Shown here piece after piece: positions 1,125-36,185 of a stretch of 44,439 bases of DNA; position 1 is the first letter of the stretch; every line of letters starts with the position of its first letter. Below the pieces are notes generated by a model. The model was not told the DNA's origin. It saw nothing but the letters and a program-made list of their open reading frames with translations, and did not search any database. The stretch spans positions 1 through 44,439 of the forward strand of contig CAYRHZ010000001.1 of the NCBI GenBank assembly GCA_964424295.1, in the 5' to 3' direction. The DNA is from an uncultured Candidatus Saccharibacteria bacterium (GTDB lineage Bacteria > Patescibacteriota > Minisyncoccia > Phycocordibacterales > DATDWN01). The translations under genes and the position numbers were made by a program.

Positions 1125-1703
1125 CTACTTCAAAGAACCCGTCTTCTGGTAGTTCTCCCAGACCGGAATCCACTCCTCACGAAGAAGACCAAGCTCAATC
1201 CTGTCCCAGTACTTGCCGTGACGGAACATCGCCTGACGCTTCTTACCTTCGATCTGGTAGCCACAACGCAGGCTGTAGTTAAGACTGCGCTCGTTGAAGG
1301 CGATGACGTCGGAGTTAATCCGACGAAGGTTCAGAGTATTGAAGGCGTAGTCGAGAAGCGCCATCTTGGCATCACTCCCGAACCCCTTGCCCCAGTACTC
1401 CTTGTCACCAATGAGAGCCCCCGTGGTCGCCACCCTGTTGACCCAGTCAATCCTGTGAAGGCCCATAAGGCCGATTGCCTTGCCCTCCTTGGTCACGATG
1501 ACCAGGACGATGTTGTCCTTGTCCTTGCACAGCCCGTCCACCCAGTCTTCTTCAAACTTCTGTGTGGTAGGAACCACACTTGAGACGAACTGTCTGACTT
1601 CTGGATCGTTGATCCAGACAAGTATTTTCGGAATATCCTCCCGAGAAACTGGTCGAAGATTTGTTTTGTTGCCCAACAGGAACACAATGTTTTCGGTCGA
1701 CAT
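1125..1703 (-). CDS. GNAT family N-acetyltransferase (RimJ/RimL-like), GC-rich
   Basis: 192-aa protein with a typical GNAT core (…GLMGLHRIDWVNRVATTGALIGDKEYWGKGFGSDAKMALLDYAF…). An AGGAGG site (plus-strand cctcct at 1712-1717) lies 8 nt upstream of the ATG. Codons are visibly rich in G/C at the third position, unlike the neighbours. Confidence 0.85.
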   Translation of the reverse strand: MSTENIVFLLGNKTNLRPVSREDIPKILVWINDPEVRQFVSSVVPTTQKFEEDWVDGLCKDKDNIVLVIVTKEGKAIGLMGLHRIDWVNRVATTGALIGDKEYWGKGFGSDAKMALLDYAFNTLNLRRINSDVIAFNERSLNYSLRCGYQIEGKKRQAMFRHGKYWDRIELGLLREEWIPVWENYQKTGSLK

Positions 1704-11707: not shown

Positions 11708-11735
11708 TTGATTTTTCTTAAAATTAATGTATAGT
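11708..11735 (+). promoter_or_regulatory. promoter TTGATT-16-TATAGT for the GC-rich 66-aa ORF
   Basis: -35 at 11708-11713 and -10 at 11730-11735. GGAGG at 11744-11748 lies 9 nt before the GTG at 11758. Confidence 0.5.
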
Positions 11736-11757
11736 TGTCCTTTGGAGGCACAAGCCT

Positions 11758-11958
11758 GTGAGTTACTACCGGCACGACGACACCCCAGTTCGATGGACCG
11801 ACCTTGCTATCAAGGTTCGTACCTGCCCCGACTGTGGCAACAGTTACACAGGAATAAGTCGGCACCACATAACGTGTCCAAAGAAGGAGGTCAAGAGAGT
11901 CGACGAAAAGAAACCTAGACCGGGAGGTGTAGGCAGTGACCTCATCTTCTTCGAATAG
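11758..11958 (+). CDS. hypothetical small protein (66 aa) with a CxxC…HHxxC zinc-knuckle-like motif, GC-rich
   Basis: GTG start with a good SD. The sequence is MSYYRHDDTPVRWTDLAIKVRTCPDCGNSYTGISRHHITCPKKEV…. The antisense 96-aa ORF has a TTG start, no SD and a low-complexity sequence. Confidence 0.5.
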   Translation: MSYYRHDDTPVRWTDLAIKVRTCPDCGNSYTGISRHHITCPKKEVKRVDEKKPRPGGVGSDLIFFE

Positions 11959-11969
11959 TTCCCCACCCG

Positions 11970-12000
11970 TCGCCCGAGGAAGACACACTTCCAAGGGCGA
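11970..12000 (+). terminator. GC-rich hairpin downstream of the 66-aa ORF
   Basis: TCGCCC…GGGCGA outer stem plus GGAAG/CTTCC inner stem with a 2x2 internal loop. The U-tract is weak. Confidence 0.35.
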
Positions 12001-15244: not shown

Positions 15245-16618
15245 ATGACAAATACACAGCGAGGCATGCGAGTACCTCCGCAAAATCTTGAATCAGAAAT
15301 GGCACTGCTTGGTTCTATAATGCTACGACCAGAAGCCCTGTTTGATGTAATGGATATTATTTCTTCTGATTCTTTCTATTCTGAAAAACACAGAGTAATT
15401 TTTAGTTCAATGATGGAGCTTTTTCAAAAAAGATCTCCTATCGATCTATTGTCAGTTTCAAGCAAGTTAAAAGAAAAAGGTTGGCTAGACCAAATAGGCG
15501 GAAACACCTACCTTACGGAAATTGTAAATTCTGTTCCTTCTTCAGCAAACATTTCTTACTATGCAGAAATAGTTCAAAAGAAATATATGATGCGTAGACT
15601 CATTGAAGCCTCTGACCACATTTCTCAAGTGGGTTACGATGAAACAAAAGAACTGGAAGAGATTTTAGAAAGTGCAGAGAAAAAACTATTTGAAGTTACA
15701 AACTTTAATACTTCTCACAAATTTGTTCCCATTAAAGAGGAACTAGCTGAGGCATGGGAAAGATTGGAAAAACTTCACTCCGGAGAAAACGAAATGCGTG
15801 GAATTTCTACAGGATTTGCAGACATAGATCATAAGCTAGCCGGGTTTCAAAAGTCCGATCTTATTATTCTTGCAGCTCGACCTTCAATGGGTAAAACTTC
15901 CCTCGCCCTAGACATTGCCAGACAAGCGGCAGTAAACCACGGCATTACTGTTGGAATATTTTCTCTAGAAATGAGTTCTCAGCAACTTGTAGATAGAATG
16001 CTGGCTGCTCAGGCAAACGTTGATGCTTGGAAACTTCGAACAGGAAAACTTTCAAAACAAAATGACTTTGAAGCTATTCGTGAGTCATTAGACAAGCTAA
16101 ACAAAGCACCTATTCATATAGATGACCAACCAGGTAATAATTTATTAAAAATGCGTTCTATGGCAAGAAGACTTAAAAACGAACACAACCTAGGCCTCAT
16201 TGTTGTGGACTACTTGCAACTCATCGTTCCATCTAGCACAAAAAGCGATAACGTTGTTCAACAAATCACTGAGATTTCTCGTGGCCTAAAAAACTTGGCT
16301 CGAGAAATGAATGTTCCGGTTCTTGCACTTTCACAGCTGTCTCGTGCAGTGGAACAACGTGGAGGCAGACCTAGACTTTCAGACCTTCGAGACTCAGGAT
16401 CTATCGAACAGGACGCGGACGTGGTTATGTTTATTCACCGAGAAGACAAATACAAAGATGAATCAGAAAAAACTAATATTGCAGAAATCCTCATTGAAAA
16501 ACACAGAAATGGAGAAACTGGAAAAGTAGATCTTTTCTTTAATGAAAAGAAAGCAACTTTCCAAAGCATGGATAAGTCGCAATACGGAGGTGCAGAAAAA
16601 GAATTTTCTGAATTTTAA
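15245..16618 (+). CDS. dnaB: replicative DNA helicase DnaB
   Basis: N-terminal PPQNLESEMALLGSIML, Walker A ARPSMGKTS, and the later DnaB-type motifs. Confidence 0.95.
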   Translation: MTNTQRGMRVPPQNLESEMALLGSIMLRPEALFDVMDIISSDSFYSEKHRVIFSSMMELFQKRSPIDLLSVSSKLKEKGWLDQIGGNTYLTEIVNSVPSSANISYYAEIVQKKYMMRRLIEASDHISQVGYDETKELEEILESAEKKLFEVTNFNTSHKFVPIKEELAEAWERLEKLHSGENEMRGISTGFADIDHKLAGFQKSDLIILAARPSMGKTSLALDIARQAAVNHGITVGIFSLEMSSQQLVDRMLAAQANVDAWKLRTGKLSKQNDFEAIRESLDKLNKAPIHIDDQPGNNLLKMRSMARRLKNEHNLGLIVVDYLQLIVPSSTKSDNVVQQITEISRGLKNLAREMNVPVLALSQLSRAVEQRGGRPRLSDLRDSGSIEQDADVVMFIHREDKYKDESEKTNIAEILIEKHRNGETGKVDLFFNEKKATFQSMDKSQYGGAEKEFSEF

Positions 16619-16661: not shown

Positions 16662-16838
16662 CTACTTCAGATGCCGGGTCCCCAGAACTGCGTGAACGTA
16701 GACTGGTTCACCGTCGATGACCATCGTGCCCGAGGCGTACTCAGCGTCCCTCTGTCTCGGACGACGACGAGGTTTCGGTCGATCGGCCTTACGAACGTGC
16801 TTACTGCGACGCTTACCCCTGATCCTGCCTTCTGCCAT
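16662..16838 (-). CDS. hypothetical small basic protein (58 aa), GC-rich, absent from the ORF track
   Basis: Hand translation gives MAEGRIRGKRRSKHVRKADRPKPRRRPRQRDAEYASGTMVIDGEPVYVHAVLGTRHLK. AGGAGG (plus-strand cctcct at 16844-16849) lies 5 nt upstream of the ATG (16836-16838). A TATAAT (16862-16867, minus strand) lies further upstream. Confidence 0.55.
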   Translation of the reverse strand: MAEGRIRGKRRSKHVRKADRPKPRRRPRQRDAEYASGTMVIDGEPVYVHAVLGTRHLK

Positions 16839-16909: not shown

Positions 16910-17521
16910 ATGGATAACACACAGAAACTCATTGAACTATTCAAAGAATTCCCCGGAATCGGGCCACGACAAGCAAAGCGTTTTGTGTATTTTTTACTAA
17001 ACAAAAACCCTAGTTACTCGAGTGACCTTTCATCACTTATAAAAGAAGTTCGTTCAACCGTTCACTCTTGCGATACTTGTTTCAGGTTTTTCCCAAACGG
17101 AACAAGTTCGACCTGTCCTATTTGCCGAGACTCTACGCGCGACAAGAAACAACTAATGATTGTTTCAAATGACGTCGATTTTGAAAATATAGAGAAAACA
17201 AAATTCTATGGAGGTTATTATTTTATTCTCGGTGGCTCAGTACCAATTCTTGAAAAGAATCCTGATAAAAAAATAAGACAAAAAGAACTATTGGAAGGAG
17301 TGGATAAAAAGATAAAAAATGGTTTATCAGAAATAATTATCGCCTTAAACTATAACCCTGAAGGAGAAAATACCTTATCCTACCTTGTTGAAATACTATC
17401 GAAACATGCCCAAGAAAGTAATATAAAGATCTCGACATTAGGCCGGGGACTCTCAACCGGAACAGAGCTTGAATACTCTGATGGAGATACTATTAAAAAC
17501 GCTTTAAAAAACCGACAGTAA
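16910..17521 (+). CDS. recR: recombination protein RecR
   Basis: LIELFKEFPGIGPRQAKRFVYFLL (HhH), a C4 zinc finger (CDTC…CPIC) and a Toprim-like C-terminus. Confidence 0.93.
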   Translation: MDNTQKLIELFKEFPGIGPRQAKRFVYFLLNKNPSYSSDLSSLIKEVRSTVHSCDTCFRFFPNGTSSTCPICRDSTRDKKQLMIVSNDVDFENIEKTKFYGGYYFILGGSVPILEKNPDKKIRQKELLEGVDKKIKNGLSEIIIALNYNPEGENTLSYLVEILSKHAQESNIKISTLGRGLSTGTELEYSDGDTIKNALKNRQ

Positions 17522-17532
17522 AACTTTCAAAT

Positions 17533-17560
17533 TTGATTAAAATCTTAAATGTGGTAGTAT
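17533..17560 (+). promoter_or_regulatory. promoter TTGATT-16-(TGg)TAGTAT for the GC-rich RNA locus
   Basis: -35 at 17533-17538 and -10 at 17555-17560, with an extended -10 TG at 17552-17553. Confidence 0.5.
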
Positions 17561-17566
17561 CATCTA

Positions 17567-17868
17567 CAGAAGTTGGTTCTGTGCATAAGTTAACAAACTC
17601 TTGTTATTTTATTCACGGAACCAGCTGGGGTTTCTGCGACGGGGACTCCCTACCCGTCTGAGCTTGGCTGGGGGCAGACAAGCTCGCAGAAACAAGCTGC
17701 AGTACTTAGCGCAGTTTGAGAAGGGGTCGCTCAGGGCCCCCTGAGAGCTTGGCTCTCGACTCACTGGCTGTGTTCCGTGCCTTATATCAACATGAAGCTG
17801 GGAAACCAGCAAAGAGCCAGACTGAGGGTGACCTCCCTTGAAACAGTCTGGCTTTTTCCTTTTATGTA
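17567..17868 (+). ncRNA. unclassified structured RNA (about 300 nt), GC-rich
   Basis: No credible ORF. Long-range helix 17614-17628 / 17764-17779 (8+7 bp, including U-G and G-U pairs valid only on the plus strand). Nested 9-bp helix 17631-17639 / 17684-17692. Several local hairpins, including GCUGG-GAAA-CCAGC (17807-17820). A 10-bp terminator stem 17825-17834 / 17854-17863 is followed by U-run UUUU. The ends are approximate. Confidence 0.6.
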
Positions 17869-17877
17869 AAAAAACAA

Positions 17878-17902
17878 CCTCCGGATGGAGGTCATTTTTT
17901 AT
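17878..17902 (-). terminator. rplU intrinsic terminator
   Basis: The minus-strand RNA reads UGA-CCUCC-AUCC-GGAGG-UUGUUUUUUU. Confidence 0.8.
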
Positions 17903-18219
17903 TATTTTATGCTATCAATAGTTACCTTAAACCAAGGTTGCCGATGTCCATTTTTCTTGAAATATCTAGATTTTTGTTTGTATTTTATAACCTCAACTGT
18001 TTTGTTTCTTCCAATCTCTTTTAGAGTTCCCTCTACTTTTGATGTTGCAATGTAAGGAGTGCCAATATTAGTGTCTTTTCCGCCATCAACAAGCAACACC
18101 TTATCGAAAACAATCTTGTCTCCCACCTTGAAAACGCCCTTAAATTTTTCAATTTTAACGACATCTCCCTTAGAGACCTTGTATTGCTTTCCGCCTGTAG
18201 CGATTACTGCGAATTCCAT
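17902..18219 (-). CDS. rplU: 50S ribosomal protein L21
   Basis: MEFAVIATGGKQYKVSKGDVVKIEK is a canonical L21 start. Confidence 0.93.
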   Translation of the reverse strand: MEFAVIATGGKQYKVSKGDVVKIEKFKGVFKVGDKIVFDKVLLVDGGKDTNIGTPYIATSKVEGTLKEIGRNKTVEVIKYKQKSRYFKKNGHRQPWFKVTIDSIK

Positions 18220-19953: not shown

Positions 19954-19977
19954 TCTCAGCAGAAAGTGAGGTTGTTG

Positions 19978-20220
19978 ATGGATACTATGCCAGTCATGGT
20001 GGAGCAAGTCAGGGCACGTTACAAAGCCCTGAAAGATGCCCACCCGGGCAAACCAGTCGACTTCCCTGCTGTATTAAGAGAAGTCGTAAGCGGAAACGGT
20101 TTCCGCGGAGAAGACTTCGGAAGGAAGGTCAAGGAGCTGTCCGCGGCGTACGCGACAGACAAAAAGAAAAGGCAAAGAGCGCTTTGGAATAGAAATTGGG
20201 GCCGAACGGCTCCACAGTAA
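19978..20220 (+). CDS. hypothetical small protein (80 aa), GC-rich orphan
   Basis: ATG at 19978 with GAGG at 19968-19971. The sequence is MDTMPVMVEQVRARYKALKDAHPGKPVDFPAVLREVVSGNGFRGEDFGRKVKELSAAYATDKKKRQRALWNRNWGRTAPQ. No family recognised. Confidence 0.55.
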   Translation: MDTMPVMVEQVRARYKALKDAHPGKPVDFPAVLREVVSGNGFRGEDFGRKVKELSAAYATDKKKRQRALWNRNWGRTAPQ

Positions 20221-20228
20221 CCCGTCAC

Positions 20229-20264
20229 GGGCCCAGCACAGATGTTGCCGGGCCCTATCGTTTT
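20229..20264 (+). terminator. possible GC-rich hairpin terminator after the 80-aa ORF
   Basis: GGGCCC (20229-20234) pairs with GGGCCC (20250-20255) around a long loop, followed by TATCGTTTT. Confidence 0.3.
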
Positions 20265-20286
20265 GTAAAAATTATTTTTATACTAA

Positions 20287-24037: not shown

Positions 24038-24070
24038 GAATATCAATATATCATAATTTTGCCAAAGTTT

Positions 24071-24093
24071 TAGCCGGGCACTTTGCCCGGCTA
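24071..24093 (-). terminator. GC-rich hairpin downstream of the 102-aa ORF
   Basis: TAGCCGGGC-acttt-GCCCGGCTA, a 9-bp perfect stem. There is no U-tract on the minus-strand RNA. Confidence 0.4.
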
Positions 24094-24108
24094 GACCTCC
24101 TCCACCGC

Positions 24109-24417
24109 TTATTCTGCGGTGAAATCGGTGAACTGCATCCACATGGGGAAGGGCTCGCCCTCCCACTGTACGCGGATTATGTTGGTGTGTCTCCCTTCTT
24201 CGCCGGCGCGACAGAACTCGACGATCGTCCCAGCCCGACCCTGTTCGATGAGCGGGTACTTGCCGGAAGAGACGACGCCCTGGTGAAGCTCGAGCTTCTT
24301 CGTGTAGACGATGATGGCGTTGATCTTCCCGTCCTTTTCGAGGTATGCGGGACCTCCCGGATCGGGAACAGTCGCTGACTTCGGAACGTGTGCGACGCGA
24401 ATGGACATTCCGGGCAT
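24109..24417 (-). CDS. hypothetical protein (102 aa), strongly GC-rich orphan
   Basis: ATG with AGGAG (plus-strand ctcct at 24424-24428) 6 nt upstream. The sequence is MPGMSIRVAHVPKSATVPDPGGPAYLEKDGKINAIIVYTKKLELHQGVVSSGKYPLIEQGRAGTIVEFCRAGEEGRHTNIIRVQWEGEPFPMWMQFTDFTAE. Hand count gives 39/60 G+C at 24181-24240. Confidence 0.65.
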   Translation of the reverse strand: MPGMSIRVAHVPKSATVPDPGGPAYLEKDGKINAIIVYTKKLELHQGVVSSGKYPLIEQGRAGTIVEFCRAGEEGRHTNIIRVQWEGEPFPMWMQFTDFTAE

Positions 24418-24437
24418 TGGAGGCTCCTCTGCACAAT

Positions 24438-24465
24438 ATTATACCTGAATATCTAGATTAGTCAA
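24438..24465 (-). promoter_or_regulatory. consensus promoter TTGACT-16-TATAAT for the 102-aa ORF
   Basis: On the minus strand the -35 is at 24460-24465 and the -10 at 24438-24443. It lies only 9 nt from the 3' end of tRNA-Glu. Confidence 0.6.
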
Positions 24466-35909: not shown

Positions 35910-36150
35910 GAAAAAAGGCCGCTCCACTCGGAGGGGCCTGCACGAAACTCGTGCTTTGGGGGAACGTACAACGGACGAACAGGGGGGACTGCGGGGACTT
36001 TGGGAGTCGAGGCCTCATCACCAGGATAAACCGAACCCGGTGTCGGTAGTCCTGGGCTTTACCTCTAACCCTGGTACTGGAGAAGTCGCTGGAAGCGCAC
36101 TTCTGCAATATACAGAGCTGCAAAGTCCGGCACCATCCCCCCTGTTTTCC
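35910..36150 (-). ncRNA. unclassified structured RNA (~240 nt), GC-rich
   Basis: No credible ORF. 11-bp perfect long-range helix (plus 36136-36146 / 35978-35988) and a nested 8-bp helix (36121-36128 / 35995-36002). Internal hairpins include CCAGGA…UCCUGG enclosing ACCGA/UCGGU. Terminator AGGCCGCTCC-actc-GGAGGGGCCT (35916-35939) is followed by UUUUUU on the minus strand. The ends are approximate. Confidence 0.6.
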
Positions 36151-36156
36151 ATCTAT

Positions 36157-36185
36157 GTTATAGCACGAATACAATAAAAAAGCAA
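36157..36185 (-). promoter_or_regulatory. promoter TTGCTT-17-TATAAC for the 35910-36150 RNA
   Basis: On the minus strand the -35 is at 36180-36185 and the -10 at 36157-36162. Confidence 0.45.

Follow-up and report, generated by a model that had tools for sequence, protein, structure and literature searches.

Locus organisation and transcription signals

The window analysed here is a stretch of 44,439 nucleotides (nt) of contig CAYRHZ010000001.1 from an uncultured Candidatus Saccharibacteria bacterium (assembly GCA_964424295.1), with an overall guanine-plus-cytosine (GC) content of 37.6%. Between recR and the ribosomal protein L21 gene rplU it carries an island of approximately 294 nt with about 60% GC (17566-17859, plus strand), where the GC content in 150-nt windows reaches 0.55-0.61, against 0.31 in each flank. 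This island is very probably a genuine gene for a structured RNA, and the family is new. Its product appears to contain three strands, A, B and C, of which B may pair with either of the other two, and this conserved three-strand exchange architecture is unusual.

Gene order, as assigned with Pfam, is cysS, dnaB, recR, the RNA, rplU, rmuC and yqeY. The gene recR (16910-17521) adjoins the RNA on its 5' side and lies on the same strand, while rplU (17902-18219, minus strand) is convergent with it. An earlier note on this DNA had pointed to the RNA from the sequence alone, adding that genes of the signal recognition particle (SRP) RNA often reside near dnaX/recR; the gene upstream of recR is, by Pfam, dnaB (15245-16618), and that rationale is therefore inapplicable. 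The closest RecR relatives, approximately 83% identical, belong to uncultured Zambryskibacteria/Paceibacteria (Parcubacteria) of the Candidate Phyla Radiation (CPR).

A sigma-70-type promoter is predicted on the plus strand at 17533-17560. It consists of the -35 element TTGATT (17533-17538), a 16-nt spacer to the -10 hexamer, and the extended -10 element TGgTAGTAT (17552-17560), the latter in agreement with the earlier note. As it scores 8 out of 12, it was omitted from the generic promoter scan, which had a threshold of 9. A promoter of the form TTGAnn, 16-17 nt, TAnnnT was found in all seven members of the family, finishing 4-5 nt before the aligned position 1 of the RNA. The predicted 5' end reads ACAGA (17566-17570, plus strand), with the start placed at about 17567-17568 from promoter geometry. 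The pentamer CAGAA (17567-17571), the final A of which is the first base of strand A, is unchanged in six of the seven members and aligned with UAGAG in the remaining one (L018).

At the 3' end, an intrinsic terminator (17816-17859, plus strand) comprises the stem GCCAGACUG / CAGUCUGGC (17816-17824 / 17844-17852; inverted repeat I2), an inner hairpin and a U-run at 17853-17857. The counterpart of this stem in the homologue L052, GCUAGAC/GUCUAGC, represents a compensatory change, and a GC stem followed by a U-run closes every family member. Its own promoter and terminator make the RNA a separate transcription unit, as read from the sequence.

Folding and detection of homologues

The minimum free energy (MFE) of the plus-strand fold was -138.8 kcal/mol, compared with -98.6 +/- 5.7 kcal/mol for dinucleotide-shuffled sequences (z = -7.1, none of 100 shuffles being as good); the minus strand gave z = -3.9. 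All helices listed in the earlier note were found at the same coordinates or within 1 nt, and its central proposal of a structured RNA running from promoter to terminator is borne out by the fold, by syntenic homologues with compensatory changes and by the promoter shared among all members.

Homologues were searched for in 46 recR loci of GTDB species representatives. With the RNA as query, blastn matched only the shared terminator, and nhmmer was needed to reveal homologues; together with a covariance model of the 5' hairpin it placed the RNA in five of the 46 loci (L017, L021, L024, L025 and L018), the last being detected through the hairpin model alone. A metagenome scan combining the recR C-terminus with a CAGAAS pattern returned six loci, among which L052 was the one homologue. 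It can be aligned to the window end to end, most strongly in the 5' hairpin and the 3' third. Exact look-up of the L21 protein added three contigs with the RNA from independent samples, one identical to the window (L053) and two slightly different (L054 and L056), and a fourth (L055) that is cut within the RNA. The changes in these strain variants amount to one insertion and six substitutions which, by eye, are situated in loops, unpaired positions or a still-paired position.

The site is constant: every homologue occupies the spacer that separates recR from a convergent rplU and is oriented like recR. Strandedness was also evident from model R1, which scored 67-82 bits on the plus strand versus 21-38 bits on the minus strand. 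RecR identity among RNA-bearing relatives was 76-84%, and RecR clustering resolved poorly whether the RNA-bearing genomes are monophyletic. The RNA is single-copy within the window; a pattern scan of IMG/VR gave no match, and nothing similar was found in phage and plasmid collections. Judging from these searches, the family appears so far limited to a narrow clade of Zambryskibacteria-like CPR bacteria.

Two competing helices and their covariation

The long-range helix described in the earlier note joins CACGGAACCAGCUGG (17614-17628) with CUGGCUGUGUUCCGUG (17764-17779) on the plus strand, to which all further elements of the RNA refer as well. It has 8+7 base pairs (bp), one bulged U, and U-G and G-U pairs. 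This helix is present and covaries; what the note had missed is a 5' hairpin with 26-nt arms (17571-17596 / 17601-17626, inverted repeat I1), also conserved, with which the helix competes. The 3' strand of the hairpin serves in addition as the 5' half of the long-range helix. Strand A (17571-17583), which supplies the 5' side of the hairpin's basal half, pairs with the shared strand B (17614-17628), the other partner of which is strand C (17764-17779); pairing of C with B closes the GC-rich core of several hairpins that lies inside B:C (17629-17763). A and C are imperfect direct repeats of each other, since A:B and B:C share strand B. The AU-rich apical half of the hairpin (17585-17612) can persist in both conformations.

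The 5' hairpin was tested on a six-sequence alignment of the first 65 nt, with 500 shuffles and slid controls. Over its 24 bp, 90.8% of positions were paired and 14 of the 24 pairs showed compensatory changes; no shuffle reached this level, and slid controls gave 31-44%. For the two competing helices a gapless A+B+C construct of six sequences was used. B:C was 93.3% paired over 15 pairs, 13 of them compensatory, and A:B in the basal half was 88.5% paired over 13 pairs, nine of them compensatory (slid controls 28-41%); in neither case was any of 500 shuffles as good. Slid controls across all three tests spanned 26-44%, and G-U pairs were common in both helices.

Because C was located by complementarity, the chance level of B:C was measured directly. 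Against mononucleotide shuffles of the sequence downstream, the real B:C duplex had the better energy in each of the seven members (P = 0.001-0.037; Fisher combined 1.6e-11). An ungapped 14-mer test was significant in L024 and L025 only, the two members without bulges; its weakness elsewhere is due to bulges and the permissive G-U rule, and the duplex-energy test was therefore used instead. In L018, which had been detected by its 5' hairpin only, a 14-bp C strand was found at the expected place.

As predicted pairings, A:B and B:C cannot coexist, and compensatory evolution appears to maintain both. The length of B:C varies from 15 to 19 bp. Constrained MFEs of the two states differed by 0.8-2.7 kcal/mol in four of six members; ensemble predictions preferred A:B in four members and B:C in three, and RNAalifold applied to the close set selected B:C. 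The final GG of B (17627-17628) pairs with C and sits 3' of the end of A:B at U17626, and in these models it could serve as a toehold. The covariation by which the earlier note had proposed to check its RNA on homologous loci was thus found in both helices.

The variable core

In the window the core begins with a perfect 10-bp helix (17630-17639 with 17684-17693) enclosing two hairpins, GACGGG/CCCGUC (17638-17643 / 17653-17658) and GAGCUUG/CAAGCUC (17660-17666 / 17679-17685). Further hairpins were placed at 17697-17714, at about 17725-17745, where CUCAGG (17730-17735) pairs with CCUGAG (17740-17745), and at 17743-17757 (GAGAGC-UUG-GCUCUC). Between C and the terminator follows a small hairpin, GCUGG-GAAA-CCAGC (17797-17810).

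Across the family the core measures approximately 110-135 nt of GC-rich hairpins, the number and layout of which vary among the folds of the seven members. In the pair formed by the window and L052, the 10-bp helix (in part), the small hairpin with its GNRA loop and the terminator are retained with compensatory changes. The small hairpin reads GCCGG-GCAA-CCGGC in L052, with a U-A to C-G change, and in the strain variant L056 the loop GAAA is replaced by GCAA, still GNRA. In the remaining members a hairpin at this position was readable by eye in some, with a non-GNRA loop, and unclear in others. The GNRA-capped hairpin reported in the earlier note therefore exists, its loop being confined to the window, its strain variants and L052. 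By eye, GAGAGC/GCUCUC of the window also corresponds to GAGAAC/GUUCUC of L052, a helix that the MAFFT alignment misregisters.

No 8-mers or 10-mers common to the seven cores were found above shuffled controls, and yet every member has high GC and a strong predicted fold despite the unalignable cores. Architecture alone thus appears to be conserved, with core sequence and topology free to vary. Since GC content and foldability outlast alignability of the sequence, selection seems to act on a stable closed domain, not on particular nucleotides. Without conserved nucleotides, the core is unlikely to contain a ligand pocket, an active site or a protein-binding motif of universal kind, and the riboswitch, ribozyme and housekeeping-RNA readings lose ground accordingly.

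It should be added that the core segment GAGCUUGGCU occurs twice (17653-17669 and 17738-17754; direct repeat D2, inverted repeats I5 and I8). Each copy can pair with CAAGCUC (17676-17689), a second possible alternative pairing, which is not retained in L052.

Search for known families and coding capacity

At gathering scores, Rfam 15 assigned only two transfer RNAs (tRNAs) in the window, and at E<=1 nothing further. In a 601-nt region around the RNA searched at E<=10, terminator-like noise was the only result, with no RNase P, SRP, 6S, transfer-messenger RNA (tmRNA), riboswitch or ribozyme; this was the check that the earlier note had suggested. Nothing relevant to the RNA was found with Rfam in 17 related loci. 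SAM riboswitches (RF00162, 64-67 bits) were identified on the minus strand a few kb from recR in L013 (7046-7144) and L005 (6300-6435), and Rfam models therefore work on these genomes.

Individual families were also inspected. RNase P RNA was judged by a match to the covariance models RF00010/RF00011 and their relatives and by the P4 strands GGAAAGUCC ... ACAGAAnnCGGCUUA; no model matched and no strand resembling GGAAAGUCC was seen by eye, ACAGAA alone being present. We take ACAGAA, combined with a strand like ..CCGGUCU.., to recall conserved region V of RNase P RNA, which served as a lead only. A permuted RNase P RNA, with ACAGAA and P4-like strands, was considered and rejected, there being no P4 5' strand or other universal motif. 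For SRP RNA there was neither an Rfam match nor, by eye, the domain IV (helix 8) motif, which combines a GNRA loop with symmetric and asymmetric loops. ARAGORN found two tRNAs and no tmRNA in the window, in line with the lack of a tmRNA match in Rfam and of a tRNA-like end by eye. No 6S model matched the body of the RNA; the sole row of this type, Bacteroidales-1 with E = 0.9, covers AT-rich sequence upstream of it (17466-17562), and, unlike in the 6S rod of about 180 nt, where the ends join around a large central bubble, the ends of the RNA do not pair together, the 3' end being the terminator. On the signatures of SRP domain IV, tmRNA and RNase P, Rfam and reading by eye, and for tmRNA also ARAGORN, agree with the earlier note, which had seen none.

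No riboswitch, T-box or attenuator was recognised either: beyond two terminators comes rplU in convergent orientation, there is no conserved core, and Rfam gave no match. A search of the RNA for tandem or periodic repeats was negative, and the neighbours, encoding DnaB, RecR, L21, RmuC and YqeY, do not resemble a guide-RNA locus.

Coding capacity was equally lacking. No peptide shared with related loci was found by tblastx, the indels that separate the window from L052 are not divisible by three, and no open reading frame (ORF) common to the members, as a type I toxin messenger RNA (mRNA) would have, was present; the absence of a credible protein claimed in the earlier note is thus upheld. The features that the island does show, namely a promoter, a terminator, no ORF and covariation, are those of a stand-alone bacterial small RNA.

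The recR-rplU hot spot

The spacer was surveyed in 37 loci holding both recR and rplU, where its length ranged from 19 to 1834 nt. In 32 of these 37 relatives the spacer has no copy of the RNA. Seven have spacers of 19-41 nt that contain the shared terminator only; this second, bidirectional terminator, common to the convergent rplU, was located by terminator scan at 17877-17892 in the window and is the sole content of such 'empty' sites (for instance L015, L020 and L023). Other spacers are filled with unrelated mini-ORFs of 50-100 amino acids (aa) that follow Shine-Dalgarno sequences, with a GNAT acetyltransferase gene or with a second RNA, likewise unclassified. As relatives have empty or otherwise-filled spacers, the RNA would count among several cargos that alternate in a hot spot, not among housekeeping genes.

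The second structured RNA occurs on the plus strand in L008 (4672-4895), L021 (4626-4850) and L024 (4778-4995), and is absent from the window; in L021 and L024 the homologue of the present RNA follows directly 3' of it. This second RNA has the long conserved blocks GGUCUGUUGUGUGUAGAUUCU, CCGAUUCCAC, GGUCUGUAACGG and UUGUACACGGCAACACUCC and its own terminator. RNAalifold predicted 66 pairs, 18 with compensatory changes among the three sequences, and no Rfam match was found for it in L021 and L024. Many different orphan mini-proteins are encoded in the hot spot, some carrying a '...QAEFL...' motif.

Comparable GC-rich stretches lie elsewhere in the window. A 58-codon ORF inserted between dnaB and recR (16662-16838, minus strand, GC 0.60) has a GGAGG ribosome-binding site (RBS), an Arg-rich N-terminus and its own terminator. 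It had no Pfam match, is absent from the dnaB-recR spacer of L052 and was undetected in 46 related loci; nor did Pfam recognise any of nine mini-proteins from the hot spots of relatives. Just upstream of the prolyl-tRNA synthetase gene proS, a GC-rich (0.60) non-coding stretch of approximately 235 nt (35915-36170, minus strand) shows a promoter-like sequence, a terminator-like hairpin at its 3' end and an MFE of -109 kcal/mol (z = -5.8). It has no Rfam match and may represent either a leader that has escaped recognition or a further orphan RNA. Further islands of at least 52% GC are found at 1076-1600, 1926-2550, 11726-12000, 19976-20275 and 24051-24450, at least three of them with ORFs. These include a GNAT-like ORF (1125-1703, minus strand; labelled by eye) that resembles a 192-aa ORF in the recR-rplU hot spot of L003, a 66-aa CxxC ORF with a Shine-Dalgarno sequence (11758-11958), and an 80-aa ORF with its own promoter-like sequence (19979-20219). 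The islands suggest a pool of GC-rich accessory modules dispersed over intergenic sites.

Discussion

Among the explanations that compete with a functional RNA gene, the most serious is that the island is left over from, or carried along with, GC-rich DNA gained by horizontal transfer, for example as a mobile-element remnant or an insulator between the convergent genes, with no role as RNA and with hairpins that matter only as terminators or as structures of single-stranded DNA. The turnover of hot-spot content between close relatives would suit such an origin, as would the seven other GC-rich islands in the window, at least four of which have ORFs lacking housekeeping annotation and one of which is homologous to hot-spot cargo of relatives; moreover, A, B and C form a set of direct and inverted repeats such as is found at element ends. 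We nevertheless regard this explanation as improbable. Both helices show compensatory changes and many strand-specific G-U pairs, and pairing within RNA is therefore favoured over protein-binding repeats; GC content and foldability persist beyond the point at which the core can be aligned, which argues for selection; the promoter is conserved, and the RNA is single-copy in the 44-kb window, with no phage, plasmid or IMG/VR match.

Attenuators and riboswitches characteristically have mutually exclusive helices arranged as 1:2 / 2:3, and A:B and B:C might accordingly be taken for the expression platform of an element acting in cis, whether a leader of the riboswitch, attenuator or T-box type or a self-cleaving ribozyme. 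This is a very slim prospect at a place where two terminators and then the convergent rplU follow, and no co-oriented gene. Besides, in the predicted folds the terminator is left untouched by both states, and the enclosed domain lacks the conserved nucleotides and topology needed by a pocket or active site, as well as any Rfam match. In the RNA II of ColE1 (alpha/beta/gamma) and in trp-type attenuators (1:2 versus 2:3), a middle segment chooses its partner during transcription. The three-strand logic of the present RNA is alike, but those systems decide priming or termination, whereas here the terminator is uninvolved, nothing lies downstream and no replication function is evident.

Equally hard to sustain is the suggestion that the RNA serves as guide or scaffold to RNA-guided machinery whose genes lie elsewhere (TIGR-Tas, CRISPR/tracrRNA, IS110 bridge RNA, omega RNA or retron non-coding RNA). 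Conserved ends around a hypervariable middle would suit an RNA that carries specificity, and TIGR-Tas systems have been found in parasitic bacteria (PMC12045711). The variable part is, though, almost wholly self-paired and not a single-stranded guide; tandem or periodic units are missing; the ORFs scanned with Pfam between 12015 and 23028 contain no Nop, Cas, recombinase, TnpB/IscB or reverse-transcriptase domain; and the HEARO, IS605-orfB and retron families of Rfam are unmatched. TIGR-Tas in particular, for which tandem repeat units and a Tas effector with a Nop domain served as the criterion (PMC12045711), was rejected, as there were no repeat units and no Tas gene among the scanned neighbours.

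The hok/sok and Helicobacter aapA1/IsoA1 systems produce transcripts of approximately 300-400 nt, accessory and patchy in distribution, in which an early local hairpin is opposed to later long-distance pairing. Coupled covariation of alternative helices within a folded transcript of about 300 nt is a property of hok-type and AapA1-type toxin mRNAs, and in the use of one strand with two alternative partners, in coupled covariation and in patchy distribution the present RNA is similar to them. The transcript might thus encode a tiny protein, such as a type I toxin whose translation is governed by metastable 5' structures and a long-distance interaction, the more so as an ATG-initiated ORF of 25 codons exists at 17792-17869. 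The likelihood of this is minimal: the ORF has no Shine-Dalgarno sequence, its stop TAA is CAA in L056, where the frame continues, and L052 has no start there, quite apart from the out-of-frame indels against L052 and the negative tblastx result. Unlike in the two toxin systems, there is no conserved ORF, no sequestration of a Shine-Dalgarno sequence and no evident antisense promoter or RNA, and the shared strand is not an RBS.

Finally, although CPR RNAs can be atypical and the size, GC-richness, own promoter and terminator would fit, a divergent housekeeping RNA (RNase P, SRP, 6S or tmRNA) unrecognised by Rfam can practically be dismissed, given that no such family matched the 601-nt query at E<=10, that P4, domain IV and a tRNA-like end were not seen by eye, that housekeeping RNAs keep universal motifs while no core is conserved here at 76-84% RecR identity, and that 32 of 37 relatives lack it in the recR-rplU spacer. 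The earlier note had left the choice between a divergent known RNA and a novel one; the lack of core conservation and the missing gene in the spacer of most close relatives disfavour the former and leave the novel RNA.

Two further comparisons help to place this new RNA family. In the SRP (4.5S) RNA of E. coli an early 5' hairpin is later replaced by a 3' segment through strand displacement. This resembles a 'placeholder' reading of the 5' hairpin described here, with the differences that no domain IV motif and no Rfam SRP match are present and that in several members the predicted stability of the early hairpin equals that of the later helix. Like raiA, OLE, ROOL, GOLLD and HEARO, the RNA is GC-rich, intergenic, covarying and limited to a lineage; none of their models matches it, OLE, ROOL and GOLLD are much larger, and these families keep core nucleotides, whereas here only the helix-exchange architecture is kept.

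A number of points weigh against the interpretation as an accessory RNA with a three-strand exchange. Transcript ends are predicted from sequence features, and expression likewise, and the invariance of CAGAA may stem from promoter or start-site constraint, not from RNA function. As regards the statistics, bulged nucleotides were taken out of the A+B+C construct, C was placed by its complementarity to B in six of the seven members, and shuffles overstate independence in seven diverged sequences of one clade. Constrained MFEs of L021 and L025 favour A:B by 6-11 kcal/mol, and the dominant state is not decidable from energy predictions. With no conserved core sequence, an obvious functional site is lacking. 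Within the window, matches to potential antisense or seed targets did not rise above chance level, RNAduplex predictions against translation-initiation regions were loop-ridden and uninterpretable, and no partner protein or target was found. Lastly, the apparent absence from relatives refers to the recR-rplU spacer alone, not to whole genomes.

Weighing these points, we judge the chances to be even that the statement holds in its entirety, that is, of a stand-alone structured non-coding RNA of approximately 290 nt, belonging to an uncatalogued family, carried as accessory cargo and operating by three-strand exchange. Taken by itself, use of both helices as an exchange in the living cell is rather probable.

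A possible course of this exchange can be outlined, its specific order and output being tentative and more doubtful than the exchange itself. The 5' hairpin would form first during transcription, because of the order of synthesis, and would sequester B while the fast-evolving GC-rich core is made; in this state the 5' end would be capped except for a tail of 3-5 nt. Strand C, made approximately 150 nt later, would nucleate on the nucleotides of B just 3' of the hairpin, where B reaches 2-7 nt past it and could offer a toehold. Branch migration would then allow C to displace A, either spontaneously or upon a trigger such as cleavage of the hairpin, binding at the 5' end or a helicase. The exchange would close the core and convert the capped 5' end into a 5' single strand of approximately 18 nt. 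The RNA would act in trans, as RNA or ribonucleoprotein, with its activity or lifetime set by its state. In one variant of this scheme, A would be a transient placeholder that prevents mispairing of B with the fast-evolving GC-rich core; in another, the RNA would be a true two-state device flipped by a trigger, with altered stability or activity as the output.

More speculatively, and against the odds, the RNA could exemplify a distinct class of 'three-strand exchange' RNAs, the sole conserved feature of which would be the swap between a hairpin and a core-closing helix around a hypervariable structured core, and which would travel as interchangeable cargo of CPR hot spots alongside other unclassified GC-rich RNA genes and orphan mini-proteins. 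Were this true, the class could serve in conflicts that involve hosts, phages or other elements, its cores evolving under diversifying pressure and the switch arming or disarming the RNA.

CPR/Patescibacteria account for a large share of bacterial diversity, and our literature searches on their non-coding RNAs returned next to nothing. The RNA reported here would provide a clean, covariation-backed case of a lineage-specific structured RNA in a CPR genome. With two exclusive helices under apparent compensatory evolution and the rest free to change, it may prove useful for studying co-transcriptional strand displacement. It also points to variable intergenic hot spots in these genomes, populated by GC-rich RNA genes and orphan mini-proteins that present annotation overlooks altogether.

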